Below are positions 334-64,000 of a DNA stretch of 64,000 bases, one piece after another. The stretch covers positions 3,333 to 67,332 of the forward strand of contig CAMBDS010000011.1 in NCBI GenBank assembly GCA_945865405.1, in the 5' to 3' direction. The translations under genes were made by a program, and so were the position numbers. The DNA is from Caldithrix abyssi DSM 13497 (GTDB lineage: Bacteria; Electryoneota; AABM5-125-24; Hatepunaeales; Hatepunaeaceae). The notes under the pieces were generated by a model. That model did not search any database. It had not been told where the DNA came from and saw only the letters and a list, made by a program, of their open reading frames with translations. Position 1 is the stretch's first letter. Every line of letters begins with the position of its first letter.

Positions 334-2211
334 TTATCGCTCCGGGTATCGGTGGGTCGCTTCTCCGGATAGTTTAAGAAGATATCCCTTACCCGGCATC
401 AACCTGTCCATGTTGGAAAATCGATTTCGTGGCAGGTAAAATCTTCCGTTATCGTCTTTGACAATGACGAGGGAATCGACAACATCGGCAAATGCTCGTT
501 CGACGCTCATGCGAGCGTCTGGAAAGTAAGCAACGGCCTGCCAACCAGCCCGGAGGGGAATTTCACGATCAAATTCTATCTCTTCACCTTCTATGACAAA
601 TTCAGTATTTTCCGTCAATTGAAGAAGATAACCGCTATTAACATCCCAAAAGGGAATGTTATTAAATCCTCTGTCAGGTGCATAAAACCTCCCCGAAGCA
701 TCCTTCACGAAACGCAATCGATTATTTTCGACTAAAGGCGATACTATTTCAACCAAACTTGGACTTGGTGGAGTTACCCTGAATGAGATCAGATTCCAGC
801 CTTCCCGCAAGGAAAGCTGTTGCTCGACCAACGGTGGACCATCGACGCCGACATACCAGTCAGCTTGAATTCCGGCTTCTGTGATCTCGATATTACGAAC
901 AGCGACGCCGGTTTCTCCTCCAGTGTAACTGATTGACCCGGGGTGACTCTCAAGATCAAAAGTATGATTGTCGCTACTGCCTGGATATGGATCGCCAGTG
1001 TCACCGGGATTTTCGAATTGCTCGAGGTCGTAGTCGTTGTCAGCCTGTTCGAGGGCAATCAGATCGTGTTGATTGCCTTGATTTCCGGGGAAGAACGGGT
1101 GGTCGTTATTAGCCATAGCCTCATCGACATGGTAAATGAGAAGTCCCGCAGCAGGCAACTCACCGTCGAAGCCGGATTTATCCCTGTACTCGGCAAGGAA
1201 ATACTGTGGACCGGGGTTTTCCGGGTTCCAAAGCTTAAAAGCTCGCCCAGATGACTCAGCTGGCGGCAATGTTGCGCGACGATCAAATTCAAGCGACTCT
1301 AACTCAATCCAGCCCAATTTTTCTTTACACCACGAGTCAAACTGCACAGGCCGCCTTCCCCCATCACCCCAAGCACCGTATGACATTACTGACCAGTAAC
1401 CAAGTCCAGCCGACTCGCCACCAGTGTCGTAAAGGTCTGGCAAGCCAAAAAGTGCGTGACCAAGCTCATGTGAGAATACGCCGATATTCCCGTCTTCCGG
1501 GACAATCGTATAACCGTCGAATCGCACTCCATCGAGTTGCCCCAGTGCTTCGACATTCCAAGCGTGAGACCAGATTTGGTTGACGTCATTGGGATTCTGC
1601 TCTGCGCCACCTCCAGCATGGATAATGAAAGGGGCATCAACGATACCGTCGTCATCGTTGTCGAATTGACTAAAATCGGTATCTCCGTCTGCCGCTCGGA
1701 TAGCGTCTTCTGCTAATCTTTGAGCATTCCGGGGGTAGTTCCCCAACCCGTATTGCCGATTGGTGTAATAGGCATAAGTTTGAGGCGCACGGTACCAGCC
1801 GACAACCTCACCGGTGATAACAACCTGTTCGAAAGAGTTTTCAAAATAATAATCTCTCACACTGCCGGTTTGAAACTGATCTTCACTGAAGAGAATATTC
1901 TCGTAGTACTCACGTGAATGAGTCTCGTGATTGCCAAGATTATCGGCAAACTCGATCAAAATCACCGGTAATCTTAGCGTAACCTGATTTTCGTCATCCC
2001 TATGCAACTCATTGTTAGGATTGGCTAACCTAACTCCAGGTCGCTGGTCAAGCCCCCGCCCCAACGCATCATTGCGGACCTGATCGACAAGATCACGCTG
2101 GTCGCGATTCAGTGCGCGCCATGCTTCAGGTTGTGGTGGCATGGCCGTCGCAACGCCAACCAGTAATAGCTGGATCAATGCAATTGTAATTTTCAATTTT
2201 TCTCTTTTCAT
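334..2211 (-). CDS. Secreted M6 family (immune inhibitor A-like) zinc metalloprotease with two C-terminal GWNLIS-type repeats
   Basis: Signal peptide; PVILIEFAD, GSVRDYYFENS, IIHAGGGAE, IWSHAW, HELGHALFGLPDLYD zinc motif, WSVMSYGAW Met-turn, GLLIYHVDE. Confidence 0.9.
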   Translation of the reverse strand: MKREKLKITIALIQLLLVGVATAMPPQPEAWRALNRDQRDLVDQVRNDALGRGLDQRPGVRLANPNNELHRDDENQVTLRLPVILIEFADNLGNHETHSREYYENILFSEDQFQTGSVRDYYFENSFEQVVITGEVVGWYRAPQTYAYYTNRQYGLGNYPRNAQRLAEDAIRAADGDTDFSQFDNDDDGIVDAPFIIHAGGGAEQNPNDVNQIWSHAWNVEALGQLDGVRFDGYTIVPEDGNIGVFSHELGHALFGLPDLYDTGGESAGLGYWSVMSYGAWGDGGRRPVQFDSWCKEKLGWIELESLEFDRRATLPPAESSGRAFKLWNPENPGPQYFLAEYRDKSGFDGELPAAGLLIYHVDEAMANNDHPFFPGNQGNQHDLIALEQADNDYDLEQFENPGDTGDPYPGSSDNHTFDLESHPGSISYTGGETGVAVRNIEITEAGIQADWYVGVDGPPLVEQQLSLREGWNLISFRVTPPSPSLVEIVSPLVENNRLRFVKDASGRFYAPDRGFNNIPFWDVNSGYLLQLTENTEFVIEGEEIEFDREIPLRAGWQAVAYFPDARMSVERAFADVVDSLVIVKDDNGRFYLPRNRFSNMDRLMPGKGYLLKLSGEATHRYPER

Positions 2212-2219
2212 AATGTATA

Positions 2220-2248
2220 AATTTATTCAGAGGAAAGCCCTCTGTCAA
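2220..2248 (-). promoter_or_regulatory. Putative sigma70 promoter of the M6 protease gene, giving a near-leaderless transcript
   Basis: Minus strand TTGACA-17 nt-TAAATT, ending 8 nt before the ATG at 2211; no SD. Confidence 0.45.
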
Positions 2249-2284
2249 GTGCGCTTCATCACCAGCACTCATTTTTTTTACTTG

Positions 2285-2313
2285 GTAGTAAATTAAATTG
2301 TGATGCCTGTCAA
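2285..2313 (-). promoter_or_regulatory. Second putative sigma70 promoter of the M6 protease gene
   Basis: Minus strand TTGACA-17 nt-TACTAC. Confidence 0.35.
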
Positions 2314-2400
2314 ATAATCCATTTAGTAAAACTGATAAATTTGAACTCGTTGAAAGACAGGACACCAATAATCTCCCAACCAAACTCGCTGTCTAAATGA

Positions 2401-2429
2401 TTGACTTTTACCTTAAAGTAAATTATCTT
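2401..2429 (+). promoter_or_regulatory. Putative sigma70 promoter of the capD-ptp-wecB operon
   Basis: TTGACT-17 nt-TATCTT in the AT-rich divergent intergenic region. Confidence 0.5.
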
Positions 2430-2527
2430 TCACCAGCTTTATAATTGGATTCTAATATCCAAGTAGCAGTCAACTCTCGATAATCTCACGAAGTAATAAA
2501 CATTACGTTCCTCTCCGCACAAAATAG

Positions 2528-4483
2528 ATGATTTCCAAGCCAGACCTCTCGACTGAGCAGATTGCGTCCCTCACTCTGCTCTACACAACCAAGACGGCAA
2601 TTCAAGTCACTTTTGACGCCCTCGCTATTGCAGTTACATTCATCGGTGCCCTGCTCCTACGCCTCTCGTTCGATACATGGCTAAATCTATTGCCCGCGTC
2701 CATGACCTATCTCCCTATAACAGTTGTTGTTGGGATTGTAGTGTTCTGGTCAGTTGGGTTTTATCGCACCCTGTGGCGGTATGCAAGCGTTGACGCTGTT
2801 TGGCTTATTACAGGCGCTTCTTTTGCTGCGGTTGCAATTTCAGCATTGGTCATAAACCTTTTCGAACCCAACGTCTTTCCCTGGTCGATCTACATTATCG
2901 AGTGGATGGGACTTGCCCTGATCGTCGGCGGTGGTAGAATGACAATACGCTATGTCCGACGCCGTCCTGTTATGAATAAAAACCCCGAAAAAAAGCGAAT
3001 TCTGATTTACGGTGCCGGTGATGCTGGTGAGATGATTTCCAGAGACATCATGCACAATAAAGGGAGCGAGCTTTGGCCTGTCGGTTTTATTGATGACGAT
3101 CCTTTGAAGCACCGAAAATCGATGCATGGACTCCCGATATTTGGTGGAGTAGAGGTCGCAGGACAAGTTGTGCGAGAGAGTAAGGTTGACGAAATCGTCA
3201 TCGCCATGCCCTCCATGACTGGTCCACAAACACGACAGATACTTCACAGTTTGCACGAGCAGATCACTGAAAAAATCGAGATCAGAACGTTGCCGCCTAT
3301 TGCGGAACTTGTCAGTGGAAATGTATCGTTCAAGCAGATCAGAGACTTCGATGTAGTTGACTTGTTGAGGCGTGACCCGATCGAGCTTGACAGCAAACGA
3401 GTGGAGCGGATTCTTAAAGGAAAATGTGTATTAGTCAGCGGTGCTGGGGGGTCGATTGGAAGCGAAATTTGCCATCAGGTCGCTGAGGGCAAACCATCGA
3501 AGATGATCCTGTTCGATATCAGCGAGCCAAACTTATACACTATCTGTGAAAGAATTTCGGCAGACTTCCCCGACTTGCAACTTGTCCCGGTCGTAGGAGA
3601 TATTTCACATCGCTGGCTGGTTGACCGCGTGTTTAATGAGCACCATCCCAAGGTCGTCTTCCACGCTGCCGCCTATAAACATGTCCCTCTGATGGAGGAC
3701 AATCCTCTCTCGGCACTTTCTAATAACGTGATCGGCACAAGGGTGCTGGCGGCAGTATCATCGGAACATCGCGTCGAGCGCTTTGTGATGATCTCAACCG
3801 ATAAAGCTGTTCGCCCGACCAACATGATGGGAGCAACAAAGCGTCTCTGCGAAATGTTGGTCGAGTCGCAACCGCACCAGCCGGGAAGCGTCTATTGCGC
3901 AGTCAGGTTCGGTAACGTGATGGGCAGTTCAGGGTCAGTTATCCCGAAGTTTGAGAAACAGATACTTGCCGGTGGGCCGGTTACGGTTACGCATCCAGAT
4001 ATCACGCGCTACTTTATGCTGACATCAGAAGCGGTGCAGCTCGTCTTGCAGGCGGCGTCACTTGAAGGCGAGTATGCAACCTATTTCCTCGACATGGGCG
4101 AGCCGGTGAAAATCGCCGAGTTAGCACGGGACATGATCTCGTTGCACGGATTCACGCCGGACAAGGATATCGAAATTGTCTATACCGAACTGCGCCCCGG
4201 TGAGAAATTGTATGAAGAACTTTGCCACACAGGCGACGGAATTCCGACTAACATCAATAAGATCTGGATTGCCGATACGCCGTCGTTTAGCCGCGAGAAG
4301 TTCCTGCGAGAACTTGACGAACTGCTTGAGTCGTGCTACAGCCTGGACCGTAGAAACCTCTACTTAGGAGTAGCCCGACTTGTGCCAGATTTTCAACCGG
4401 CACTCAACTCACTCGAACAAAATGCGTTACAGATTGGTGGACAGTCTGACCGCCGGGTAACCATAACGCAACCACGCAAATAA
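2528..4483 (+). CDS. Membrane nucleoside-diphosphate sugar 4,6-dehydratase (CapD/PglF/WbpM family)
   Basis: N-terminal TM helices, IYGAGDAG, GAGGSIGSE, FHAAAYKHVP, STDKAVRP, RFGNVMGSSGSVIP. Confidence 0.93.
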   Translation: MISKPDLSTEQIASLTLLYTTKTAIQVTFDALAIAVTFIGALLLRLSFDTWLNLLPASMTYLPITVVVGIVVFWSVGFYRTLWRYASVDAVWLITGASFAAVAISALVINLFEPNVFPWSIYIIEWMGLALIVGGGRMTIRYVRRRPVMNKNPEKKRILIYGAGDAGEMISRDIMHNKGSELWPVGFIDDDPLKHRKSMHGLPIFGGVEVAGQVVRESKVDEIVIAMPSMTGPQTRQILHSLHEQITEKIEIRTLPPIAELVSGNVSFKQIRDFDVVDLLRRDPIELDSKRVERILKGKCVLVSGAGGSIGSEICHQVAEGKPSKMILFDISEPNLYTICERISADFPDLQLVPVVGDISHRWLVDRVFNEHHPKVVFHAAAYKHVPLMEDNPLSALSNNVIGTRVLAAVSSEHRVERFVMISTDKAVRPTNMMGATKRLCEMLVESQPHQPGSVYCAVRFGNVMGSSGSVIPKFEKQILAGGPVTVTHPDITRYFMLTSEAVQLVLQAASLEGEYATYFLDMGEPVKIAELARDMISLHGFTPDKDIEIVYTELRPGEKLYEELCHTGDGIPTNINKIWIADTPSFSREKFLRELDELLESCYSLDRRNLYLGVARLVPDFQPALNSLEQNALQIGGQSDRRVTITQPRK

Positions 4484-4506
4484 CCTGAATCGATAAATAA
4501 CCGACC

Positions 4507-5049
4507 GTGTTTTTTTTTCACCCCAAACCGCCTCCCCTTCGAAGCATCCTATTCGTCTGTACTGCCAACATCACTCGAAGCCCGGCCGCTGCCGGACTTT
4601 TTCGTCATTTAGCCACCATGTCAGGTGAGGATTGGGTAGTTGCATCAGCGGGGGTACGGGCAGTAAAGGGCGCTCTACCACTTCCCGCTGTCGAACGAGC
4701 CCTCGCTACACGAAAAATCTCGATCGGGTCTCATCGGTCACAACCGGTGACTAAGAAACTTATTACTAAATATCATTGGATCATGGTTATGGAGGGATAT
4801 CACCGCGATTCGATTATAAAACTTGATCCAACATTTGCTGACAAGACCTTCATTATTAGAAACTTTGGATTATCTACTCCGCTCGATTCGCCCGACTTTC
4901 CAGACCCAACATTCAGCAATAAAAAGGGCGAAGAGGCATTGGATGATTACTTTGAGTTCTTGAAATTACTTGAGATAGAGATTCCAAGAGTGTTCGAATT
5001 ACTTCGCGAGAGAGTGGTAAATTATGAGATGGGGCCGGAGAGCGAGTGA
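4507..5049 (+). CDS. Low-molecular-weight protein phosphatase family protein (Wzb/LMW-PTP-like)
   Basis: ILFVCTANITRS P-loop (CX5R), SAGV, HRSQPV, FPDP acid loop. Confidence 0.85.
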   Translation: MFFFHPKPPPLRSILFVCTANITRSPAAAGLFRHLATMSGEDWVVASAGVRAVKGALPLPAVERALATRKISIGSHRSQPVTKKLITKYHWIMVMEGYHRDSIIKLDPTFADKTFIIRNFGLSTPLDSPDFPDPTFSNKKGEEALDDYFEFLKLLEIEIPRVFELLRERVVNYEMGPESE

Positions 5050-6113
5050 AGAAAATCCTAACTGTACTTGGCGCTCGCCCGCAATTTATCAAGCATTGTC
5101 CCACCGGCAAAGCTATCCGTGACTGCGGAATGGAAGATATAGTCGTGCATACAGGTCAACATTACGACTATGAGATGTCGAAGCTCTTTTTCGACGAACT
5201 GCAGATCCCCGTACCAAACGTCAATCTTGGTATCGGATCCGGCTCGCAAGCCAATCAGACGGCTGCGATCATAATTGCATTGGAAGAGAGCATGATCGAA
5301 ATGAAGCCCGATTTGGTGCTTGTTCATGGCGATACAAACTCGACGCTTTCCGGCGCGCTTACGGCGGCAAAGCTTGGCATTCCCGTGGCGCACAATGAAG
5401 CCGGGATGAGGTCGTTTAATCGGTCGATGCCTGAAGAAATCAATCGAATCCTTACAGATCACTGTTCAACGCTACTCTTCTGTCCGACGCAACCATCCGC
5501 CGATCAGCTTTTAAGCGAAGGCATAAGAGATGGTGTCCTTGTCATTGGCGATGTTCAGTACGACCTCGCAAGAATCCACCGCGACAAGGCCTTGGCAAAT
5601 TCTAAAATTCTTCAAGAGCATTCACTCTTGGAGCGACACTATGTTCTGGTTACCCTACACAGACCCTATACGGTCGATGATCCGAAACGACTTGCTCAAC
5701 TCTTCAATGCATTCTCAGCTCTCGATGAGCAGATCGTGCTCCCACTGCATCCCCGAACCAAGGCACGACTTCATGAATTCAATCTGACGGTTCCAGAGAA
5801 CATTCTGATCATCCCCCCCGTCGGTTATCTCGACATGATGATGCTGGAGATGTCGGCGAGAATGATAATGACAGACAGTGGTGGGGTGCAGAAAGAGTCA
5901 TATTTTCACGGCATACCGTGTCTTACTCTTCGACCCGAAACTGAGTGGATAGAGACAGTTCAGGCGGGTTGGAACAGAGTGGTCGATACGGATGAGGCAA
6001 AGATATTGGATTCAGCACGGACGGAATGGTGGCGTGAGGATCGACCTTTGGTGTTTGGGGATGGGCATGCTGCAGAAAAGCTTGCCTTCGTAGTGAAAGA
6101 CTATCTGGGATAA
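5046..6113 (+). CDS. wecB: UDP-N-acetylglucosamine 2-epimerase (non-hydrolysing)
   Basis: GARPQFIK, HTGQHYD, VHGDTNST, EAGMRS, TDSGGVQKE, ETEW. Confidence 0.93.
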   Translation: MKKILTVLGARPQFIKHCPTGKAIRDCGMEDIVVHTGQHYDYEMSKLFFDELQIPVPNVNLGIGSGSQANQTAAIIIALEESMIEMKPDLVLVHGDTNSTLSGALTAAKLGIPVAHNEAGMRSFNRSMPEEINRILTDHCSTLLFCPTQPSADQLLSEGIRDGVLVIGDVQYDLARIHRDKALANSKILQEHSLLERHYVLVTLHRPYTVDDPKRLAQLFNAFSALDEQIVLPLHPRTKARLHEFNLTVPENILIIPPVGYLDMMMLEMSARMIMTDSGGVQKESYFHGIPCLTLRPETEWIETVQAGWNRVVDTDEAKILDSARTEWWREDRPLVFGDGHAAEKLAFVVKDYLG

Positions 6114-6133
6114 GGTCGAACTGTAGATCTCTT

Positions 6134-6171
6134 AATGAGCAAAGCTCGTCGGATGACGGGCTTTGCTCATT
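6134..6171. terminator. Hairpin between convergent wecB and pntB, likely a bidirectional terminator
   Basis: AATGAGCAAAGCTCGTC-GGAT-GACGGGCTTTGCTCATT, 17-bp stem with one G-U. Confidence 0.7.
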
Positions 6172-6193
6172 GTGACCTATAGCGAACGAAACT

Positions 6194-7654
6194 TTACGCC
6201 GCTTTGACAGCAGCAATAATCTCCATGATAGCTTTTTTGCCATCCGCAAAGAAGAGGACGGAGTTTGGTGCGACGAAAAGTGGGTTGGCAATACCTGCAA
6301 AACCTGGTGAAAGGCTTCGCTTGATGACGATGACATTGCGAGCCTTGTCAGCGTCGATAATCGGCATTCCGGCGATGGGGCTGTTTGGGTCTGTGCGGGC
6401 AATCGGATTGACTGTATCGTTGGCACCAATCACAACAGCGACGTCAACCTGAGGCATTGTCGGGTTGATGTCGTCCATTTCCACCATCTCATCGTACGGC
6501 ACGCTTGCTTCGGCAAGCAATACGTTCATGTGACCCGGCATACGACCTGCAACGGGATGGATGGCGTATTCGACGGTTGTCCCTTTCGCTTGCAACAGGT
6601 TTGCCAGATCACGCACCGCAAACTGAGCCTGTGCTACTGCCATACCGTAACCGGGAATGAAGACCACCCGTTGCGCACCTTCGAACATCATGGCGACGTC
6701 CTCAGCACTAACAGACTTGACTTTACCGCCGTAGATGTCATCAGCCTTGCCCGAATCCGTTGTCGCGCCAAAAGCTCCGAACAGAACGTTCGTAAAGGAG
6801 CGGTTCATCGCTTTGCACATAATGATCGAGAGGATCAATCCGGACGCACCATCCAAAGCACCAGCAACGATCAGGAGTTTGTTGTTAAGGACAAATCCCA
6901 TCAACGACGCCGAAAGACCTGCATAGGAGTTCAGCAACGCTATCACCGTAGGCATGTCGGCTCCACCAATCGGGAGGATTAGCAACACACCGAAGAGAAG
7001 ACTTAACGTGATAAAGATCGGGAACATCCACATGGCGCTCGGATCGATAATCAGGTAGATTCCAGCGACCACAGCCAAACCGAGAATCGTGAAGTTGATG
7101 AAGTTCTGGCCCTTATGGACCATTGGCTGGCTTGGAAGGATTTCCTGAAGCTTCCCGAACGCCATCAAACTACCGGTAAAAGTGAGGAAACCGAGTAGCA
7201 TTTCGAAAATCAACGCTATCATGTCGAAGGTTGTGATTTCAGGCGTGATCAGGAAATGCGCAGTTCCAACCAAAGCCGCCGCCAACGCGCCAAAGGCGTG
7301 TGACAACGCTGTTCGTTGCGGCACAGCAGTCATCGGCATGAAAACGGCAAGCGGAACACCGATAGCGGCACCAATTCCAAACGCGATGAAGATCCAGGTG
7401 TAGTTGACAATCTCAAAACTGACCAGTGTACCGACAATTGCCAGCAACATACCGAGTTCGCCAACCATCACGCCACGGCGCGCTGTTTTAGGATGGCTGA
7501 GCCATTTCAATGCCAAAATGAAGGCTATAGCAGCGACAATATAAGTGTAGTTGACGAACCACTGTTGCTCGCCTCCCTCGCCATGGGACGCCAAAGCAGT
7601 CCCGGCTGAGGCAAGTAGCGCAGCTATTCCAAAAAAGAGAACTCGACTCATCAA
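6194..7654 (-). CDS. pntB: NAD(P) transhydrogenase subunit beta
   Basis: Multi-TM N-terminus, IGGADMPTVIALLNSY, PGYGMAVAQAQ, IHPVAGRMPGHMNVLLAEA, GANDTVNP. Confidence 0.97.
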   Translation of the reverse strand: MMSRVLFFGIAALLASAGTALASHGEGGEQQWFVNYTYIVAAIAFILALKWLSHPKTARRGVMVGELGMLLAIVGTLVSFEIVNYTWIFIAFGIGAAIGVPLAVFMPMTAVPQRTALSHAFGALAAALVGTAHFLITPEITTFDMIALIFEMLLGFLTFTGSLMAFGKLQEILPSQPMVHKGQNFINFTILGLAVVAGIYLIIDPSAMWMFPIFITLSLLFGVLLILPIGGADMPTVIALLNSYAGLSASLMGFVLNNKLLIVAGALDGASGLILSIIMCKAMNRSFTNVLFGAFGATTDSGKADDIYGGKVKSVSAEDVAMMFEGAQRVVFIPGYGMAVAQAQFAVRDLANLLQAKGTTVEYAIHPVAGRMPGHMNVLLAEASVPYDEMVEMDDINPTMPQVDVAVVIGANDTVNPIARTDPNSPIAGMPIIDADKARNVIVIKRSLSPGFAGIANPLFVAPNSVLFFADGKKAIMEIIAAVKAA

Positions 7655-7974: not shown

Positions 7975-7997
7975 TGTCTATTGATCTCCGGTGTTAT

Positions 7998-35324: not shown

Positions 35325-38300
35325 TTATTTGATTAAGTGGAGTGAAATGCGGTGTTTTTGACCGCCTGAGGATATTGTTGCAATATACATGCCCGAGCAC
35401 AGTGCATCTGCTTCGATTGTTAATAAATGTTCTCCCGCACTAATTTCACCTGTCTCAGTGCGAAATAATACTCTTCCTTGCAAATCACTTAGCACAATAT
35501 TGACATTTCCAGCTATTGGCAACCGAACCGGCAGAAAAGTCCTGCCGTTGAAGGGATTGGGAAAATTCGACATTACTTCGAAGCTGTTTGGAATGGTCGT
35601 CTCTTCAGGTAAGGCTTCATTTGCCGGTTGACCAACTCCGGCTCTTATTACCCATTGTCCAACCCCGAACGGAATCCATCCTGTTGCGGTGGTGTAGTAT
35701 AGATTCTTTTCCCCGTCAGGGTGCGATGTATCGACGCCAAAGGCAGGCGCGCTTGGTGTTTCGGGAAGGTAATCGACCACTACCCAAAACGACCCACCAA
35801 GGTCAGGATCGAATTCAAATCGCGGCTGTTGACGACCGGGAAAGTAAAACCGTTGGAAGCCCTCCGTAGCCGATGACGTCACCCTGTAGTGAGCCCCTCC
35901 CTCCATCGGAAAACCGTTATCGTCAGGAGTACACCAGATTTCGAATGGTTGATTACCACGATGTAGTAGATCTATCCAGAAAGTTGAGATTTCTTCCTGA
36001 CCCGGTTCAATCGTAAACTTCGTAGCCAGCCTATTGTCTTCACCGTTAAAAGCGACTATGTAGAAGGCCTCTGCAGTCCCATCATCCATCCGCATCTCTG
36101 CAACGTCAGGATTGGCTCCTAGATAATTCCCCACTCCCGGGCAAATTGGTCCCTCGAAAATTCCGTCATCTTCCAGCACGTACCCTGATAATGAATACTC
36201 AAACCACCCACTCCAATCCCCTCCATTCCGCTCAAATTCCCTATCGACACACCGCTCCTGCCCCGGATCAACGCTCGTCAATAGCTCTCCATTCCGATAA
36301 ATATTAATTCCATCCCATCCCCTGATTGCGGCACTGTCAAGCCCCATTTCGGGGTCCTGCCAGATAAGAACCATCCCGGTTCTATCGCGACCAACCTGTA
36401 GATTCGTCGGAGCAATCGGCGGAACAGTTAGTGTTACTGGTAAATGTATCTGTCCAAACTGGCGGGGCTCGCTGACTATCGAAAACATATCCTGAGGCCA
36501 CCAACCGTGAAAAATCGGGTTGTCGTCATCATCTCTTTTCATGGCAAAGAGGCCGAGACCTATCACCTGCTCCGGTGAATAGACAGCAACTTCTTCATTC
36601 CCATGAAATCCAAGCGGGATCGACATCTCGACTTCGACGCCCGTCTCATGTTCACCGAAAGCCAGAGTCGGATTTTCAAACTGATAATACGGATCAGAAA
36701 TATAGGGCGCTCCTGTAATCGACCGATACCGCATATCCGGTCCGCCATTCCGCCAATATCCCCAGTAATTCCCCTCCGACCCGTCGCGCTTGGTAGTCCA
36801 CATTCCGTCACCGTCATCATCGATGTAAACGCCGAGTCCCATGTTGTTTTCAAGCTCTCGCATGTTTCTATATCTGACCGCCAAATAGAGTCTGTCGTCA
36901 GCATTACTGAAGCCGATCATCGCCTCCACTGTACCCGCTGAGTCGGGTTCGTCATAGCCAAACACATCTGAAATGTCCCGCATCTGAGCTCCTTCCCACT
37001 CGGCAGCATCGATTGTCCCATCAAGGCGGGGAATTCGTTCCAAAGGCTGCAAATCGGCGTCATATATCAAAAAGTCGTCATCGATAAATCCAGTCGCTTC
37101 GGCGGAGTATTCGCTTTCACCCTGTTCAAATACCGCAGTGATTCTGTAATAATAATTATGCTCTGGAAAGAGATTATCCCGATCAATGTAACTGTTCAGA
37201 TCCCCATCGACTGAAGCGAGTAGGCCATAAGGCCCTCCCGCAACTGGTGAGCGATAAATCCTTATCTCAGATGCATCGTCATCCATATCGTCGCGGACAG
37301 GCTCGCCTCCCTGCTCATGTGGCATATCCCAAGGAGTCATTCCGACTTGAGCCGGTTGATCTCCAACTGCAGAGAGTACCCTGTCTCCATTGCCAAATCT
37401 CGCCAATCGCTGCCCGTTATAAGCGTCCCATGCCAATGTTACCCTGTTTCGGCTCCCGTGTGAGGCACGCAGATTAGTCGGTGGATCACCTGCGACACTA
37501 TCGACGAGATTGAAGTTACAGTCGAAGGTCGTATCGTTCGGTACGACTTCAACTGACAACTCCTGATAGCCAACTCCGCGTTTGGAGGCAAACAATGTGA
37601 AATCGTTGCGCTCGGTAGTCTCGACTCTTACTACAAAATTTCCAGTTGCAGTTGTGACCGTACTATACGGATTGCCAAGCACGCCAATAGTCACACCCGG
37701 AACACCAGCTCCCTGCTGTCCGTCCCTCACCCTGCCCGAAACGAATCCGCCCAATAGCGAAAGTTCGACCAGATGCGCCTCACCACCGCGACCAAATACC
37801 CGGTTGTGAGTCGCTTTACCTCCCGCAATAACCCGGTTGCCACTGCCAGATATGCTGACTCCGGCGAGCGAACCGTTCGTCGTCAAAGTATAAAAGGGAG
37901 TGCGACTATGCCTTTCGTGTACCACCAAATCAGGGCGATCATGATTCAAATCTCCCCACGATACTGCAGCTACGATGGTGCCATCGTTATTGAACTGGAT
38001 TGCCGCGATTTCGTCGGCAAACCGGTCGGAAATCCAGAGTGGTTCTCCTTCTCCAAAAGCATCAAAAACAGCAAAACGACCTTCGTAGTGGTCGTCAAAA
38101 AAATCGAGTGTCCCAGCGCCTATCGTCGTCCCGTCCTTCGAGACAGCAACGCTTGTGATCCACGATGAGCTTGCTCCTCGGAAAGTGTAATGCCAAAGCT
38201 CTTCGTATCCCTGCTCAGCACGGGCAAAAACTCTCAACCTGCCAGAAAGTGAACCAGTAACAAGTATTCGTCCGTCACCAGAGACATATACGGCGGATTC

Positions 38301-39104
38301 TGTGTTGTAGGTCGGTTCCTCCCAAATTAATTCCCCTGAAGCAGCATCGACAACGTAGATCTGAAACTTGCCGTTCACCACCCCAACTCGACCATCAGCC
38401 GAAATTTGTGCGCCGTACCAGTTGAAAGCTTCTTGAGCATCGACTTCGAGCGTCCAGAGTCGTTGCCCGTTTGCAGTATTGAACCCCCATGCCCGGTTAA
38501 CCCGACCGTCAGGATCGTTTCCGGTGGCAATCAATCTTTGGCCGTCCGATGAAAGCGCTACCGGGCCGGGGTAATATCCCTCCATACCAAAACGGAAAAA
38601 TGGAACCCCTCGCCCATTCGAGCGAAACAACCAGACCGAATCGAGTGCCGCATAAGCAATAATTTCACCCGTTCGTGACAATGAAACCCACGAGCTACCT
38701 GATCCCACACGATAGGTGAACAGCGTATCTCCCCCAAAGGCATTCCTCACTTCGAGGCGTTCGTCATTCAGAGAATAACCTATGGCAACGATGTTTCCGT
38801 TTTCAGAGATGGCGACCTGTTCAGAGATTCCATTCTGGTCGGATGCTGTCCAGCGCAGACTACCTCGACCGAGGTCTCGATGTGGCGATTCCGAAGGATG
38901 TGTAGATGATGAGTGGAGTTGGAGTAGTCCCGCGCCTTCGGTCACAGTTTTAACATCACGACCATTTAGGGCGCGATATTCAAGTCGTTGTGCCAAAGAG
39001 GAAGAAGGTGAAATTTGAGGGGATGCAATTGCCTGGCATATCGTAAGTAACCCTGATAACAGGGCAAATAGCAGCGAACGGGAGGGAACCATCGTAGTCT
39101 TCAT
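35325..39104 (-). CDS. Large secreted protein: beta-propeller, carboxypeptidase-regulatory-like Ig, FN3, CBM9/DOMON-like and T9SS-type C-terminal domains
   Basis: Start placed at MKTTMV (39104), just after the DnaJ stop; VAISENG/VAVSKDG repeats; GFVSGRVRD; PPTNLRAS; PRLDGTIDAAEW; NFPNPFNG...SGMY...LHLIK. Confidence 0.82.
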   Translation of the reverse strand: MKTTMVPSRSLLFALLSGLLTICQAIASPQISPSSSLAQRLEYRALNGRDVKTVTEGAGLLQLHSSSTHPSESPHRDLGRGSLRWTASDQNGISEQVAISENGNIVAIGYSLNDERLEVRNAFGGDTLFTYRVGSGSSWVSLSRTGEIIAYAALDSVWLFRSNGRGVPFFRFGMEGYYPGPVALSSDGQRLIATGNDPDGRVNRAWGFNTANGQRLWTLEVDAQEAFNWYGAQISADGRVGVVNGKFQIYVVDAASGELIWEEPTYNTESAVYVSGDGRILVTGSLSGRLRVFARAEQGYEELWHYTFRGASSSWITSVAVSKDGTTIGAGTLDFFDDHYEGRFAVFDAFGEGEPLWISDRFADEIAAIQFNNDGTIVAAVSWGDLNHDRPDLVVHERHSRTPFYTLTTNGSLAGVSISGSGNRVIAGGKATHNRVFGRGGEAHLVELSLLGGFVSGRVRDGQQGAGVPGVTIGVLGNPYSTVTTATGNFVVRVETTERNDFTLFASKRGVGYQELSVEVVPNDTTFDCNFNLVDSVAGDPPTNLRASHGSRNRVTLAWDAYNGQRLARFGNGDRVLSAVGDQPAQVGMTPWDMPHEQGGEPVRDDMDDDASEIRIYRSPVAGGPYGLLASVDGDLNSYIDRDNLFPEHNYYYRITAVFEQGESEYSAEATGFIDDDFLIYDADLQPLERIPRLDGTIDAAEWEGAQMRDISDVFGYDEPDSAGTVEAMIGFSNADDRLYLAVRYRNMRELENNMGLGVYIDDDGDGMWTTKRDGSEGNYWGYWRNGGPDMRYRSITGAPYISDPYYQFENPTLAFGEHETGVEVEMSIPLGFHGNEEVAVYSPEQVIGLGLFAMKRDDDDNPIFHGWWPQDMFSIVSEPRQFGQIHLPVTLTVPPIAPTNLQVGRDRTGMVLIWQDPEMGLDSAAIRGWDGINIYRNGELLTSVDPGQERCVDREFERNGGDWSGWFEYSLSGYVLEDDGIFEGPICPGVGNYLGANPDVAEMRMDDGTAEAFYIVAFNGEDNRLATKFTIEPGQEEISTFWIDLLHRGNQPFEIWCTPDDNGFPMEGGAHYRVTSSATEGFQRFYFPGRQQPRFEFDPDLGGSFWVVVDYLPETPSAPAFGVDTSHPDGEKNLYYTTATGWIPFGVGQWVIRAGVGQPANEALPEETTIPNSFEVMSNFPNPFNGRTFLPVRLPIAGNVNIVLSDLQGRVLFRTETGEISAGEHLLTIEADALCSGMYIATISSGGQKHRISLHLIK

Positions 39105-39105: not shown

Positions 39106-40041
39106 TCAATCTCCCTTGGGAATAAATCCATCTCCGTCAACCGGGGGGCGAAATCCCGGCAACGCCATAAGTTCATCCAAAAGCTGTCGTTCTTTACGTG
39201 AAAGTCGTTTCGGAACGCATAATTCAATCTTAAGATACAGGTCTCCCGCCTGAGAACTGCTAAAAGCAGGCAACCCCTTGCCCGAAATTTTTAATATCCG
39301 TCCATCTGCCATGCGCGGCGGAATCTCCACGGCAGTCGGTACACCGGGAGTTGGAACCACAATTTTTCCACCTTCGATGAACGTATCAAGCCCGATCAAG
39401 GCCCGATAATGGTAATCCCGATCCTTAACCTCTATGTAGCTGTCCGGCTTCAGCAAGATTTCCACGATCAGGTCACCAGAGATATTCCCCGGCGGAAGCC
39501 TATGCCCAAACGTCGCAAACCGTAGCTTACTTCCCGTCCGAACGCCTGGCGGGTAAGTTATTTCAACATTGGTAGTCTTCCGAACGATGCCGTTGGTATT
39601 GCAATGTGAGCAATTTTGATACTTGCTATCAAAGCCACTACCTTCGCATGCAATACAGGGGATTTTCCTCGGAATTTTAAGTTCCCGGTGGCCACCCCGA
39701 ACCGCCTCGCCAATCGTCAGATGCAACCTGACATGAATATCGCGATTAACCTCTCTCGCCGGTTCGCGATGAACCTCCTTCTCGGTACTTTGAGCAGGAG
39801 ATTTCGGTCGGTGGACACCTGCCGTCCGGTCATATCGTCCACGTGCTGCAGGATTGCTTAATATCCGGTAAGCATCGGCAACCTTTTTGAACAATTCTTC
39901 GGAAGTCGGATCTTCCGGATTGGTATCAGGATGGAATCGCTTGGCCATCCTCCTGTATGCGGAGCGAACCTCTTCCTCGGAAGCACCCGGTTCCAAGCCC
40001 AACGTTTCGTAAAGCGGTGGCACATTTGGCTTATTGGTCAC
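39106..40041 (-). CDS. DnaJ-family co-chaperone with a reduced zinc finger
   Basis: J-domain with HPD, only two CxxC motifs (CIACEGSG, CSHCNTNG), DnaJ C-terminal domain. Confidence 0.9.
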   Translation of the reverse strand: MTNKPNVPPLYETLGLEPGASEEEVRSAYRRMAKRFHPDTNPEDPTSEELFKKVADAYRILSNPAARGRYDRTAGVHRPKSPAQSTEKEVHREPAREVNRDIHVRLHLTIGEAVRGGHRELKIPRKIPCIACEGSGFDSKYQNCSHCNTNGIVRKTTNVEITYPPGVRTGSKLRFATFGHRLPPGNISGDLIVEILLKPDSYIEVKDRDYHYRALIGLDTFIEGGKIVVPTPGVPTAVEIPPRMADGRILKISGKGLPAFSSSQAGDLYLKIELCVPKRLSRKERQLLDELMALPGFRPPVDGDGFIPKGD

Positions 40042-59156: not shown

Positions 59157-60840
59157 AGTAATCCAATATAGTAAGTGGAGTTTTCTAAAAGTCATTCTAC
59201 TCCTCACTGTCGTCGATCTTATTATAATGTTTATATTTACGGTAACACATGGTGAGGGAATTTTTCTTGGTAGTGTGCACGTGCCTATGCGACACACTCT
59301 CAGCGTATATACATTCTGGCTCGTTATCCTGATCCTTGCCTATTCGTTTTTATCTGGTCGCGAGCACCCATTTTTCAAGACCATTCGTACATCCAAGCTA
59401 TTACAAAGCTTGGGTATATATTATCTTAGATCCCCAAAATCTTTGTTTGTTTTTGTGCTTTGCTCAGCAGTATTCCTATACTCAATGATCGTTTTCTTCG
59501 GTGAGAAACTATCCGATGATTATATGATCCTGGGATGGATTAAAACTCTAAACATAAGTTCATTAAGTGACTGGAAAACAATTTGGCACAATTCCGGGTT
59601 TATTAGGCCCCTGCCGATACTTTGGTGGAAGCTGGACGAGTACTTATGGAACGACAACAATATCATGGTTTACTTTGAATCAGTCCTGCTCCACGTTTTT
59701 AATACTTTCCTTTTCTATGTGCTCCTCAAAAAGCTATCGATAGAAAGCAAATCGCGATTAGGTACTGCGCTGCTTTTCTTCATCTTTCCTATCGGGGCGT
59801 ACGCGATTGGTTGGCTTTCGGTTCGCTACGATCTAATGGCAACTTGCTTCGGTTTTATATTTTTAATCTCGTTTCTCAAGTGGAACGAGAATCGCAGGCA
59901 ACTGTTTGCTGTTTTTGCAATGCTGGCATTGTGCGGAGCCCTTCTCTCCAAAGAAAACGCGATTGTATTGCCGTTGTTAGCCATTGCAATCTTTCCACTG
60001 ACTGAACTCTATGCTACACAATCAATTGAGAATCGTAAAAGTTCATATAAGAAATTACTTTACAGTATCTTACCATATCTTGCTATCGTTTTAACCTATT
60101 TAGTAGGTAGATACACATTTTTCAGCGATCCCGGCGGCTATCGGATAGGCGGCGCATCTATTCATACGACGTTTATTCCTGAAGACCCGAGCAGTATGAT
60201 AATCGACCTGTTTCAAGGCATTTTTTCCCCTCTGAACCTCTTGTTTCTCAATTCACTACCTTTCTGGATTGGTTTGATCGAGCTTATCGGTTTGGTTGCT
60301 TTTATAACATTGACAGCAAAAGCTTTTTTAGAAACGGTTAGAAACGCGTCATCTTTGATTCTGTTGATATTATTGCCATTATTGCCAATAATAACGCATC
60401 TTGGGGTTGAGGGAGACTTCAAGGATGCACGTTTTTTATACATGTCATCGCCTTTCATAGCATTGATGATTGGAAAAAGCTTGGCGGATACCCGTCAGTT
60501 CATCGTTGTTCTGATCTCGGCAGTAATGCTGCTTGGAGTTAACGTTGCGGCACATATCGATACTTACGTTCTTGTTAATCTGCTTAACAGAAATGTCGAA
60601 CAACACCTTGCTAACGTGCCTGCCAGCTATAATTTCCGCATCACTAATCTGCCGTTATCTTCGAATGGAATTTACGTTTATGGGAACGGTTTCCCAGAGA
60701 GATTTAAGCTGGAGAAGGTTGAGGCTGGCGACACGACTAATTTTGAGGTACTTGACGTTCGTGAGTTAGCAACAGGCGGTGAAAAAAGAAGAAATTTTTC
60801 AACGCTCAAGCTCGAAGGAATTTATCGGAAGGCGGAATAG
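59146..60840 (+). CDS. Polytopic GT-C family (TMTC/PMT-like) glycosyltransferase
   Basis: LSDDY, FIRPL, LLHVFN, WLSVRYDL, LLSKENAIVLP, RFLY. Confidence 0.72.
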   Translation: MSDKVIQYSKWSFLKVILLLTVVDLIIMFIFTVTHGEGIFLGSVHVPMRHTLSVYTFWLVILILAYSFLSGREHPFFKTIRTSKLLQSLGIYYLRSPKSLFVFVLCSAVFLYSMIVFFGEKLSDDYMILGWIKTLNISSLSDWKTIWHNSGFIRPLPILWWKLDEYLWNDNNIMVYFESVLLHVFNTFLFYVLLKKLSIESKSRLGTALLFFIFPIGAYAIGWLSVRYDLMATCFGFIFLISFLKWNENRRQLFAVFAMLALCGALLSKENAIVLPLLAIAIFPLTELYATQSIENRKSSYKKLLYSILPYLAIVLTYLVGRYTFFSDPGGYRIGGASIHTTFIPEDPSSMIIDLFQGIFSPLNLLFLNSLPFWIGLIELIGLVAFITLTAKAFLETVRNASSLILLILLPLLPIITHLGVEGDFKDARFLYMSSPFIALMIGKSLADTRQFIVVLISAVMLLGVNVAAHIDTYVLVNLLNRNVEQHLANVPASYNFRITNLPLSSNGIYVYGNGFPERFKLEKVEAGDTTNFEVLDVRELATGGEKRRNFSTLKLEGIYRKAE

Positions 60841-60843
60841 TCA

Positions 60844-60936
60844 AAAATCGATCACTGAGTCACAGGGGGCTGGAAAGGCTTGTTGGATAGGGGCTATGGG
60901 CGTGATCGATTTGTGATTCAAGTAAAATCGATCACG
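60844..60936. repeat. Three copies of AAATCGATCAC (two direct, one inverted)
   Basis: Copies at 60845-60855 (+), 60902-60912 (-) and 60925-60935 (+); 60901-60912 and 60925-60936 form a perfect 12-bp inverted repeat. Confidence 0.7.
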
Positions 60937-60951
60937 GCGAAAAGAAGAAAT

Positions 60952-60975
60952 CCGGCTTCGGAGAAGCCGGGCTAC
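60952..60975 (-). repeat. REP-like palindrome (GTAG class)
   Basis: Minus strand GTAGC-CCGGCTTC-TCC-GAAGCCGG. Confidence 0.55.
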
Positions 60976-61057
60976 GCTACTGCTTTCTTTTGCATTTTAA
61001 TAAGAGATGCTCCATATTTTATGGCAACTTACCGTCTTAGCCATTAGGAATTCACGA

Positions 61058-64000
61058 ATGCGCATCGCTTCAACACTCGCCACCTTGGCACTGCTCGCAA
61101 CTTCAGCCTTCGCCGCCGCGCCCACCAACGACGCTTACACATTCACGCCGCAGAACGTGCTTGACATCGCAAGGTTGGCTTACGAGCCTTCGGCGGGGAT
61201 AGACTCCGTCGTGCTCTCTTCCGGACAGGTGATCCGCCAGTCGGGGCATTGCGGCACGCCGGTGCTTATGGCACTTGAGGAGGCTCTACGCACAACCGAC
61301 CTCTCGCCGGCAATGCGCCAGCAGATCGAGGAGCTTGGACGGGATGGGGCGGATGATTTGGATAGAACTTACAACACACGTAACTTCCGCATCCGCTTCA
61401 CCACCGACGAGGATGACGACGATTGCGTCTATATGCCAAATGATGTAGATCGCAACACCCCAGATGAGGACGGTAATCCAACTCCGTGGTATATCGTTGA
61501 ATTGGGGCAGGCTCTTGAACGTGCGTTATCCGCCTATTCGGACTTTCGTTTTCGTGAGCCAGACGCGGATGACCGAAGGGATATAGAAGTTTGGGATTTG
61601 GAGAACAATTGGTTTGACAGACTGTTGGGAAGACCAGCCGCATGGGGACGAACAGCTCACAATCATTCAATCGAAATCGACAACAATATGAGCCAGGAAC
61701 CTGGCAGCGACCTGACTGATCTGTTCATGAGGGATGTCGCAGCACACGAGTTGTTTCACAAAGTCCAATTTGAGTATTTCGATTACATCTTAAACTACCC
61801 GGTTGAAGGCGTTTTTTCCGAAGGTTGGTTTATGGAAGGAACCGCTGACTGGGGAACTGACATGGCGGATGATGATCTGAATGGCTACATACTGACTGCT
61901 AACCAATTACTTGATGATCCCGGTATAGATCTGCGGAATGCTGATTATACTGCCAGCCTATGGTGGAGATTTGTCTGCGAACAATTCGGCGGCGAGCGTG
62001 ATGAGCCAGGAGTTGGAGCTGATTTCATGCGAGCGGCCTTCGAAGCCATAGATGAAAACGGCGGTGATGGAGTCGAAATGATAGATGAAATTCTTCAAGC
62101 GGAAGGTAACGTAGATTTTGAAACTGCATTCGCCCGCTTCTTTGTAGCAAACTACGTTAAATCTCTGCCCAATCCAGCGCAAGAATATAATTACCTTGAA
62201 AAAGACGATTTTTTTTATCAGAATCATGAGGGTCTTCGCTATCACGAAGTGGCTATCCAGCACGAATATACTCTCGATCAGGATCATCCCGAATTCGACT
62301 ACCACTCAGACCGCAATCCCCTTCAGCCTTGGTCGGCGCAATATTTTGAAATCAATTTAGAGGAAGAAAACGCCTCTGTGAGGATCACTCTCTCCGGTGA
62401 TGAAGATGGCGAATTCATCTGGCAAGCTTTGGCGATTGATGGCAACGAAAACCTGATACAGATCTACCGGAGCGAAGAGACCGAAGCCGAATTCGAAATA
62501 AACGACGAGAATCTGGCCAAGGTCGTCGTCGTGGCGGGAGCGTATGGGGAAGGGGGAGGGTTTGAGGTGGAGGTGAGGACTGCCTCGCGAGATCTGTTCA
62601 CAAGGCATGAAATCGACCGCTTTGAGGACTGGAAAGGTGCTTGGTGGGGTGCGAGCACGGCTGATCTAGATCTTGATGGGGATGTCGATCTGTTAGTAGG
62701 AACATATAAGGAATTAAATGGAAGTAGAAGCGATATTTACTGGTATGAGAACACAGACGAGCATCAATTCAGGCGACATATCGTTGATGACGATCCAGCT
62801 GGCTTTGTTTTCGGTAAAGTCAATGCTACTGATTTAGACAGAGATGGTGATCTTGATCTGATAGTTGGAACACAGAGCCACAATGTTTGGTATGAAAATG
62901 ATGGAAGGCAACAATTTACTAGTCATATTATTAATGATATTGGGTCTGATTTCTCCGATATCATCGCCATTGACTTAGATAACGATGGTGACCTAGATCT
63001 TGCGGGTGGCCTCTGGTGTCAGAACGATGGACAGCAGAATTTTGATCGAATTATTGAGAATGTATTTGGATACCCAGTTGACATTGATAATGACGGTGAT
63101 TTGGATGGAGTCTCTGGCATGTCAATTTTTGAAAATAATGGAGAGATGGAATTCCAACGTATAGTTATCGACGACAACCCTGGCGGTCACAATTATGGAC
63201 ACCCCAAACCATTCGATTTGGACGAAGATGGCGATCTTGATTTTGTTGTGGGGACAGAAGCTCAAAATCTAAACCAAGTGCTATTTTATGAGAACGATGG
63301 TCGGCTAAATTTCGAACGGCATGTAATCGATAATAACCCAGGAGGGTATATCCGCGGCTGTATCAATGCTGCTGATATTGATGGAGACGGAGACCTGGAT
63401 TTGACTGTTGGCACGTATGAAGGTAACCAAGTTTTATGGTATGAAAACATCGCTCAGGGTCAATTCACTGAGCACCTGATTGAAAATCCTGGGGGTTGGG
63501 TTTGGGGAGGAGTTAGTATTGCCGACCTAGACGGTGATAATGACTTCGATTTGATTGCGGGTACAAATCGAAGTGGTGGCCTTTTTTGGTATGAAAATAA
63601 TTCAAGAGACCACCTCTTAGAGAGTCTCAAGTTGCTAAGGGGTGTTGATGCTCGCCCCTCCCCTATTTTCGCCTCCCTCGATCCCAACTTCTCCGCTTCA
63701 TTCTCCGTTCAAAATGTTGGCGGCGAACCGCTTCGAGACATAACCCTCGTTTCAACAGTCTCCAACGCTCAGGGCAATCGTCTCTTCGACCTTGAGGAAG
63801 TTCATTTCGATGCTGTTGAGCCGCGCGAATCGGTTGATTACGGGCCAATCGAAGGCACTCTGGAGACGCCCGGAACATATCTTATCCGTGCTCGCGCATT
63901 CGTAGGAGGCCACGAGGTTGAACTTGAAATCGATGACGAAGCGACTAACCCCGTCCGCGTCCGTGTCGAATATGGCCTCGTCCACTTCGAGCCTCCTGCC
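61058..64000 (+). CDS. Large secreted zincin metalloprotease with FG-GAP repeats and an Ig/CARDB-like domain, truncated at the window end
   Basis: Translated by hand (absent from the ORF track): MRIASTLATLALLATSAFA signal, HCGTP, VAAHELFHKVQ...WFMEGTADW, seven D.D.DGD.D-type repeats, FSVQNVGG; no stop before 64000. Confidence 0.88.
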   Translation, partial: MRIASTLATLALLATSAFAAAPTNDAYTFTPQNVLDIARLAYEPSAGIDSVVLSSGQVIRQSGHCGTPVLMALEEALRTTDLSPAMRQQIEELGRDGADDLDRTYNTRNFRIRFTTDEDDDDCVYMPNDVDRNTPDEDGNPTPWYIVELGQALERALSAYSDFRFREPDADDRRDIEVWDLENNWFDRLLGRPAAWGRTAHNHSIEIDNNMSQEPGSDLTDLFMRDVAAHELFHKVQFEYFDYILNYPVEGVFSEGWFMEGTADWGTDMADDDLNGYILTANQLLDDPGIDLRNADYTASLWWRFVCEQFGGERDEPGVGADFMRAAFEAIDENGGDGVEMIDEILQAEGNVDFETAFARFFVANYVKSLPNPAQEYNYLEKDDFFYQNHEGLRYHEVAIQHEYTLDQDHPEFDYHSDRNPLQPWSAQYFEINLEEENASVRITLSGDEDGEFIWQALAIDGNENLIQIYRSEETEAEFEINDENLAKVVVVAGAYGEGGGFEVEVRTASRDLFTRHEIDRFEDWKGAWWGASTADLDLDGDVDLLVGTYKELNGSRSDIYWYENTDEHQFRRHIVDDDPAGFVFGKVNATDLDRDGDLDLIVGTQSHNVWYENDGRQQFTSHIINDIGSDFSDIIAIDLDNDGDLDLAGGLWCQNDGQQNFDRIIENVFGYPVDIDNDGDLDGVSGMSIFENNGEMEFQRIVIDDNPGGHNYGHPKPFDLDEDGDLDFVVGTEAQNLNQVLFYENDGRLNFERHVIDNNPGGYIRGCINAADIDGDGDLDLTVGTYEGNQVLWYENIAQGQFTEHLIENPGGWVWGGVSIADLDGDNDFDLIAGTNRSGGLFWYENNSRDHLLESLKLLRGVDARPSPIFASLDPNFSASFSVQNVGGEPLRDITLVSTVSNAQGNRLFDLEEVHFDAVEPRESVDYGPIEGTLETPGTYLIRARAFVGGHEVELEIDDEATNPVRVRVEYGLVHFEPPA

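Follow-up and report, generated by a model that had tools for sequence, protein, structure and literature searches.

Proteins exported by the type IX secretion system (T9SS) in one family of Calditrichota carry a short motif, Pro-x-Arg-Asp (P-x-R-D; R-R-D-D in the M6 metalloprotease group), and we are highly confident that it is a real, conserved and family-specific motif of T9SS cargo. Its Arg-Asp (RD) core came to attention in three secreted proteins encoded in a 64,000-nucleotide stretch of DNA (the window, G000:C11:3333-67332): an M6 metalloprotease, a large T9SS cargo protein and a HExxH zincin with an FG-GAP block. A sequence-only reading of the window had proposed that RD at the propeptide and domain junctions of these proteins may be a maturation signal. 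That observation is real and was named too broadly: P-x-R-D is conserved and lineage-specific in T9SS cargo, but RD alone is unenriched and the two sites that flank the FG-GAP block are unconserved. The best overall reading, for and against which we give equal weight, is that P-x-R-D would be a maturation site cut after Arg by a secreted C25 protease of the gingipain type that is itself T9SS cargo. In the literature outside subscription journals we found nothing on such a motif or on type IX secretion in Caldithrix.

Enrichment of P-x-R-D in T9SS cargo

The source assembly (G000; 2.76 Mb in 43 contigs, 90% complete) yielded 2098 gene calls with our own codon-model open reading frame (ORF) picker, at a coding density of 90%. 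The C-terminal domain is the one known signal common to T9SS cargo, and an iterated hidden Markov model (HMM) of this domain, also our own, defined 171 cargo proteins in G000; a TIGR04183 search of the same genome gave at least 149 matches. The other predicted proteins were divided into 448 with a signal-peptide-like or transmembrane-like N-terminus and 1479 remaining. Expected counts were derived from composition, and shuffling (n = 300) was done within each protein. The family of the source genome, within Calditrichota, is designated f1; f2, f4, f5, f6 and f7 are other families of that phylum. The cargo proteins represent 171 of the 2098 predicted genes and ~19% of proteome residues (161,742 of 831,596 aa), an unusually large investment in secreted T9SS cargo.

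In whole proteins, P-x-R-D occurred 95 times in cargo against 30.8 expected, with no excess in the other signal-peptide proteins (26 against 25.8) or in the rest (64 against 76.3). When the C-terminal domain was removed from the 171 cargo proteins, 93 sites were counted against 28.1 expected, the maximum of 300 shuffles being 44, and the motif ranked 10th among 33,641 gapped three-residue patterns. The sites were present in 47 of the 171 proteins (24.7 ± 4.3 expected). A position test in cargo showed that only Asp is enriched after P-x-R, only Arg before Asp (Lys, 1 against 7) and only Pro at -2, while Pro at spacings of 0, 2 and 3 residues before RD was found 32, 21 and 33 times against 28 expected. 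The N-terminal zone (residues 16-175) held 24 sites, one in each of 24 of 165 cargo proteins and forming 17 BLAST clusters, against 5.0 expected. Counts in this zone were 7 against 6.0 for the other signal-peptide proteins and 16 against 19.0 for the rest.

RD by itself gives no signal and is an ordinary dipeptide. The six RD dipeptides singled out in the sequence-only reading were all found at the coordinates it gave, although its two 9-base spans in the zincin also cover the preceding Ser codon. They are six of 23 RD in the three window proteins (5 in the M6 protein, 10 in the large protein and 8 in the zincin), where composition predicts 16.2. An enrichment of RD in secreted over cytoplasmic proteins, which had been suggested as a check, was not seen in this genome: observed and expected counts were 635 and 608.0 in T9SS cargo, 560 and 560.3 in the other signal-peptide-like proteins and 1617 and 1672.5 in the remaining proteins. 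Residues 16-175 of cargo likewise showed no excess (107 against 106.4). In hydrophilic 15-residue windows RD was in excess in cargo only (130 against 93.2), and in the same windows DR, RE and KD reached 0.74, 0.63 and 0.55 of expectation. Since the listing of RD from these hydrophilic windows showed Pro two residues before Arg, the hydrophilicity test was replaced by the analysis of P-x-R-D.

Conservation and exposure of the sites in the window

The three proteins and their six sites are as follows, with the basis of each assignment in parentheses. Structures were predicted with AlphaFold2 (AF2).

334..2211, minus strand: secreted M6 (InhA-type) metalloprotease, 625 aa (TIGR03296, 220 bits against a cut-off of 110.8; PF05547 match)
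1996..2001, minus strand: RD71 of the M6 protein (HRDDE; aa 71-72), ~5 residues before the first catalytic strand (alignment and AF2)
35325..39104, minus strand: large T9SS cargo protein, 1259 aa, likely start M42 of the listed ORF (TIGR04183, 36.4 bits against a cut-off of 23; Pfam matches)
38874..38885, minus strand (RD 38874-38879): P-H-R-D of the large protein (SPHRD; aa 115-118), at the border of the disordered spacer and the propeller (orthologue alignment and AF2)
37290..37301, minus strand (RD 37290-37295): P-V-R-D of the large protein (EPVRD; aa 643-646), in a variable insertion within a loop of the FN3-like domain (orthologue alignment)
61058..64000, plus strand, running past the window end: HExxH zincin, MXAN_6640 type, with FG-GAP block (NF045524, E 7.7e-21, below its cut-off; FG-GAP_3, E 3e-29)
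61340..61345, plus strand: RD112 of the zincin (LGRDGADD; aa 112-113), ~14 residues before the first catalytic strand (one homologue)
62588..62593, plus strand: RD528 of the zincin (ASRDLF; aa 528-529), before the FG-GAP block, probably chance (homologue comparison)
63605..63610, plus strand: RD867 of the zincin (NSRDHL; aa 867-868), after the FG-GAP block, probably chance (homologue comparison)

Four of these sites (RD71, RD117, RD645 and RD112) are conserved in the related sequences available and two (RD528 and RD867) are not, so that the expectation of conservation in orthologues held in part.

The M6 protein consists of a signal peptide, an N-terminal pro-segment, a catalytic domain (aa 83-361) in which HExxH is present as HELGH, and a C-terminal pair of GW..LISF repeats. 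Profile searches did not detect a T9SS C-terminal domain in it, unlike the large protein and the zincin. At RD71 the family consensus is R-R-D-D. The RD is invariant in A1, an alignment of 12 f1 sequences, and was kept in 11 of 11 f1 homologues (38-72% identity) but in none of eight homologues from other families; where f1 has R-R-D-D, f5 homologues read T-L-D, N-T-D or P-T-D. In a weak AF2 model (mean predicted local distance difference test, pLDDT, 61), aa 48-75 are coil with pLDDT below 50 and the first catalytic strand spans aa 77-88.

Alignment A1 also shows M-P-P-x-P directly after the signal peptide (aa 24-28, window 2128-2142), a motif conserved in M6 homologues; M24, P25 and P28 do not vary among the 12 f1 sequences aligned. 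At the C-terminus of the M6 protein, ~160 residues (aa 455-625, window 334-840) hold two GW..LISF...KD..GRFY repeats. This domain is also found in the zincin, past the window end (G000:C11:67660-68133), and it is hugely expanded, with hundreds of matches across f1 genomes in proteins of 300-2000 aa. Because it is the sole C-terminal domain of the tail-less M6 protein, it could provide another means of anchoring or sorting.

The large protein is made up, in order, of a signal peptide, a variable spacer, a beta-propeller, CarboxypepD_reg-like and FN3-like domains, further domains and a type A C-terminal domain. RD117 was kept in 13 of 13 orthologues covering the site, downstream of sequence that is hypervariable and varies in length, and it forms the first invariant columns of the alignment (A2). 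AF2 modelled aa 42-560 with a mean pLDDT of 83 and a predicted template modelling score of 0.79; in the numbering of the model, pLDDT stays below 50 over residues 57-75, RD occupies 76-77, and from residue 80 the propeller reaches a pLDDT of ~95. In both modelled proteins, then, RD lies in coil of low confidence, and the first strand of the following domain begins 3-5 residues later. At the second site, RD645, 14 of 15 orthologues have RD and 12 of 15 have P-x-R-D, with flanks variable in sequence and length. Conservation of the other RDs of the large protein varies: RD90 is kept in 0 of 13 orthologues, and some RDs belong to well-conserved blocks (RDISD, for example). Slightly upstream of the RD645 loop, the tripeptide T-P-W (aa 630-634, window 37320-37340) is also conserved between variable flanks. 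The gene directly upstream of the large protein (39106-40041, minus strand) appears DnaJ-like by eye from its translation: the N-terminus (YETLGL...HPD) resembles a J-domain, and a Cys-rich stretch resembles a zinc finger.

The full zincin ORF encodes 1481 aa and ends, beyond the window, in a T9SS C-terminal domain; it is cargo by our HMM. No full orthologue was found in 15 genomes of the family, which gave one zincin-domain homologue (L050), and the zincin sites are poorly tested as a result. RD112 is kept in L050 (LERDELEETYNTDNF against LGRDGADDLDRTYNTRNF), the sole homologue found in f1 (n = 1). RD528 is absent from L050 and from the corresponding border of all 13 homologous FG-GAP blocks; RD867 is absent from the same 13 blocks, which mostly read L-D-P or N-P at that border. 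Both are probably chance dipeptides, as this comparison of sequences suggests.

Conservation of the motif in other cargo

Orthologues were also compared for proteins outside the window that we chose ourselves, mostly for their N-terminal sites, and that are not a random sample. P-x-R-D at R35 of C13_20366 is present in 15 of 15 homologues. At R52 of C1_181854, RD is present in 12 of 12 homologues and Pro in 11 of 12. RD at R73 of C20_8631 lies in the linker of 14 of 14 orthologues at a shifting position, as expected of a linear motif; at the internal P-x-R-D of the same protein (R514), Arg is kept in 1 of 15. The site at R67 of C6_94673 is kept in its one orthologue. In a test of low statistical power against a same-genus genome, eight reciprocal-best pairs, mostly of proteins picked earlier, kept P-x-R-D at six of nine sites, compared to 2481 of 7881 (~31%) for all other triplets of the same spacing (a.bc).

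A symmetric scan for conserved islands picked up none of the RD sites, because RD sits at the border of variable and conserved sequence and not between two variable flanks. A list of the first conserved columns was used instead. In three of five alignments, the columns that first reached at least 90% identity downstream of the signal peptide were those of (P-x-)R-D, with at most one other such column before them (T96 before R117 in the large protein).

Distribution among families and in giant cargo

For a test of lineage, ~400 kb from each of five other genomes was analysed with cargo defined by the same HMM. The regions of G019 were chosen for their density of C-terminal domains. Observed and expected counts of P-x-R-D were:

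G006 (f1), 23 cargo proteins: 10 against 3.8
G003 (f1), 20 cargo proteins: 28 against 4.6
G021 (f2), 18 cargo proteins: 0 against 2.3
G020 (f6), 23 cargo proteins: 2 against 2.3
G019 (f5), 92 cargo proteins: 1 against 5.6

With G000 included, the excess is present in three of three sampled f1 genomes and in none of three genomes from other families. The sites in G006 and G003 belong to the same classes as those of G000 (N-terminal, C25 junctions and module linkers). As the f1 genomes are mutually related, the excess counts as one evolutionary event.

Module linkers are present in two giant cargo proteins (4185 aa, G000:C7:71206-83763, L072; 3967 aa, G000:C7:1-11904), built of ~480-residue modules. 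Their linker reads EPE-RD-x3-R-x-L-R-x-V-D/N-G-x3-G-P-x-RD, and each linker thus has two RD ~18 residues apart.

Other shared modules were seen near the C-termini of cargo. A C-terminal module of ~400 residues that includes the T9SS tail (L075, G000:C6:94673-96631, aa 250-652) is present in 22 G000 proteins; all 76 scored candidates matched in G003 and G015, and apart from the tail the module has no Pfam match. In G019, 24 of the 92 cargo proteins (loci L111-L130) have in common a domain of ~100 residues just before the T9SS tail, with the consensus LPNG..YGP.LGP.NL...DRDR.Q.VP..AP.G.Y.Y..Y.G.YP. and an inner RDR counted 24 times against 2.2 expected. RDR was rejected as a linker motif of G019, since it lies in this conserved domain before the C-terminal domain.

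C25 proteases and the candidate enzyme

The sequence-only reading had suggested looking for C25 or C11 proteases. G000 has 19 C25-family genes, all PF01364 matches above cut-off; no C11 peptidase was found in this 90% complete genome. So many C25 genes (L001-L008, L064-L071 and others) in 2.76 Mb resemble a radiation of probable pseudo-gingipains with T9SS tails. One, C34_7877, is the PorU orthologue (223 bits to 6za2). The canonical G-H-G plus Cys is present only in PorU and C19_30907, with C8_61725 ambiguous. The other paralogues mostly have YRGW, YRGY or RAF (the catalytic His being replaced by Trp, Tyr or Phe) and keep the Cys; five or six also lack the Cys, and that subgroup reads GHGEW there. 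A search for astacin gave no match in G000, although its control also matched nothing, making it uninformative. The trypsin fold is represented by one ORF of 508 aa.

Sixteen of the 19 C25 paralogues have a conserved h-x-N-P(P) followed by R-D, which precedes the first catalytic strand by 6-16 residues. Extending the alignment without gaps puts the RD of C27_23079 at most two residues from the RgpB Arg229/Tyr230 position. RgpB chain numbering was checked against Cys473, His440 and Glu381 in PMC4138498.

C19_30907 contains Propeptide_C25, Peptidase_C25, CarboxypepD_reg and Por_Secre_tail domains (PF01364, 124 bits against a cut-off of 23; PF08126, 44 bits against 22), and full-length orthologues are present in 15 of 15 f1 genomes. 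Its YRGHGSET and SSACLTGD align to RgpB His211 and Cys244, and this dyad is kept in 24 of 24 aligned homologues. The prodomain matches that of Kgp (5mun, E 1.7e-9) and, in a consistent register, that of RgpB (4ief_A, E 0.37). P-x-R-D is present on its inhibitory loop: F-P-T-R136-D aligns within one residue of RgpB Arg126 and of the corresponding Kgp Lys, inside the RgpB inhibitory loop Lys121-Tyr135. The motif occurs in this loop in 12 of 15 f1 sequences and in none of nine homologues of f4, f5 and f7, six of which have P-T-T-D. As reported in PMC4357240 and PMC4138498, RgpB is exclusively Arg-specific and is autoprocessed at Arg126 and Arg229; the P1 Arg is bound by Asp163 through a salt bridge, and Arg126 sits substrate-like in the S1 pocket. 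The proposal that a dedicated protease serves modular exoproteins is partly supported by the presence of a C25 enzyme with a gingipain-type prodomain, an intact His/Cys dyad and P-x-R-D on the inhibitory loop, but its S1 specificity is unreadable from sequence.

Discussion

We suggest that P-x-R-D, with Arg-Asp as its core and placed in exposed and otherwise variable stretches of T9SS cargo, most likely marks maturation sites: the end of the variable spacer after the signal peptide, the border of pro-segment and catalytic domain, surface loops, and the linkers between ~480-residue modules. A C25 cysteine protease of the gingipain type, itself secreted by the T9SS, would cut after Arg, freeing cargo of its N-terminal spacers and propeptides and dividing modular proteins. 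On the sequence comparisons presented here, that the motif is cleaved at all seems somewhat more probable than that it is not, and C19_30907 is a tentative candidate for the enzyme responsible, one we would rather doubt than assume. For the earlier idea that the motif splits modular exoproteins, the giant cargo with its two copies per inter-module linker argues in favour, cleavage there being a prediction.

Several findings weigh against cleavage after Arg by a C25 protease. BLAST comparison of the two 80-residue flanks groups the 93 P-x-R-D sites into 33 clusters, against 28 sites expected. The clusters number 36, 12, 5, 5 and 3 sites, four of 2 sites and 24 singletons; that of 36 comprises linkers between modules in giant proteins and their relatives, and that of 12 the C25 junctions. 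With two paralogous groups so dominant, the raw count largely reflects conservation within those groups. The linker motif of the giant proteins is embedded in a longer conserved element and so may be structural. The candidate enzyme has no RD before its own catalytic domain, and neither do PorU and C8_61725; in addition, 3 of 15 f1 orthologues of C19_30907 lack R-D in the inhibitory loop (PHRIG, PAIDDG and PALDNT). In a phmmer alignment to C19_30907, RgpB Asp163 lies next to gaps, Gln282 and Trp284 stand against Thr, and the candidate column reads D, T, Q, H, E or V among f1 orthologues. As these P1 contacts of RgpB are unmatched by conserved residues in C19_30907 and its orthologues, Arg specificity of the enzyme is conjectural. 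Most C25 paralogues lack the canonical His and would need to be cut in trans. If loop and substrate were matched, f5 cargo should co-vary with the P-T-T-D loop; this was rejected (P-x-T-D, 13 against 18.9 in G019 cargo), and the logic of equating loop with substrate fails. Of the loop residues, Asp is the best conserved between families, so that a cut after it is also conceivable. Finally, cleavage, the scissile bond between Arg and Asp and the identity of the enzyme are inferences, whereas the motif, its specificity for T9SS cargo and for the lineage, its conservation and its presence on the inhibitory loop of the protease are shown by the sequences.

P-x-R-D might instead be selected but uncut, as a docking or recognition element (for degenerate C25 paralogues, the T9SS attachment machinery or a periplasmic factor) or as a hinge or cap conserved where a domain begins. 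We consider this unlikely, though deserving of serious attention. The many C25 paralogues without His, five or six of them also without Cys, could bind without cutting, and the longer conserved linker of the giant proteins would suit such a role. Moreover, the Arg of the RgpB inhibitory loop binds S1 in a position unfavourable for cleavage, according to PMC4357240. The domains that follow the motif (propeller, FN3-like, C25, BNR-like, CARDB-containing and M6) are, however, unrelated, which makes a common structural cap unlikely. The shifting position of the motif within the linker of C20_8631 orthologues and its presence at the place of known gingipain propeptide cleavage also speak against this reading.

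Alternatively, the motif could be a cleavage site at which another bond or another enzyme is involved: a cut after Asp, with P-x-R-D occupying P4-P1 as for clan CD caspases, or a cut by an Asp-N-type or other secreted protease instead of C19_30907. This we regard as improbable. Beyond the lack of conservation of the RgpB S1 Asp163, it draws on the prominence of Asp in the inhibitory loop (x-R-D in f1; T-T-D, V-D and K-D in f5 and f7) and on the f5 M6 junctions, which share Asp with the R-R-D-D of f1. Pro at P1' is disfavoured by most endopeptidases, yet 10 of 94 P-x-R-D sites read R-D-P and would place Pro there if cut after Asp. C25 precedent is for a basic P1 residue, P-x-T-D is unenriched in f5 cargo, and searches for other enzymes gave one trypsin-fold gene and no C11, the astacin search being negative but uninformative.

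That the RD sites are chance dipeptides picked by eye, a caveat of the sequence-only reading itself, is highly improbable. In its favour, RD is unenriched in every class, ~28 P-x-R-D sites are expected in cargo from composition alone, and RD528, RD867 and the internal R514 site of C20_8631 are unconserved. Against it, four of the six sites stay invariant among orthologues next to variable sequence, and the P-x-R-D excess is confined to T9SS cargo, to the exact residue at each of its three positions and to this lineage. Chance is already refuted for the motif as a whole and stands for the two FG-GAP flank sites.

Returning to cleavage after Arg, a broader and decidedly speculative extension, to which we give little credence, is that P-x-R-D acts as a second, family-wide T9SS address label in Calditrichota, N-terminal or internal. 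It would be read by a gingipain-derived system in which one active protease cuts and at least 16 degenerate C25 pseudo-proteases bind, together sorting, tethering or assembling cargo on the cell surface and turning giant polyproteins into ~480-residue modules.

Gingipain-driven maturation after Arg has been studied in Bacteroidota, chiefly Porphyromonas. The present work adds a candidate processing motif with an explicit consensus in dozens of unrelated cargo proteins of another phylum, and it names a candidate enzyme. Should the motif prove to be cut, it would allow mature N-termini and module borders to be predicted for the extracellular enzymes that these sediment protein-degraders make, give an uncharacterised branch of C25 a substrate motif, and open the idea of secreted polyproteins to test.

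Comparison with known systems

The gingipains of Porphyromonas gingivalis (RgpB, RgpA and Kgp) are the nearest parallel. Like C19_30907, they are T9SS-secreted C25 proteases with a homologous prodomain and a His/Cys dyad. Polyprotein processing is known for RgpA, Kgp and HagA, and here too there is modular cargo that could be cut between domains. In both systems the inhibitory loop of the prodomain bears a basic residue, and an Arg site closely precedes the catalytic domain (RgpB Arg126 and Arg229; PMC4357240). Unlike the gingipains, the present proteins belong to Calditrichota and not Bacteroidota, and dozens of unrelated cargo proteins have in common an explicit consensus in which Pro would occupy P3 and Asp P1'. 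RgpB S1 residues Asp163, Gln282 and Trp284 are not conserved, and most C25 paralogues lack the catalytic His.

PorU, the C25-like T9SS C-terminal signal peptidase, also processes T9SS cargo and has an orthologue here (C34_7877). It removes the C-terminal domain independently of sequence, according to PMC4804311. In contrast to its target, P-x-R-D is N-terminal or internal and defined by sequence, and PorU itself has no RD before its catalytic domain.

Consensus-defined processing sites are known from furin and kexin (R-X-K/R-R) and from the tetrapeptides of clan CD caspases. The likeness is of a short linear motif in exposed linkers through which one protease matures many unrelated secretory proteins; the enzyme families, the organisms and the motif are all different, and in the cargo described here the cleavage is putative.

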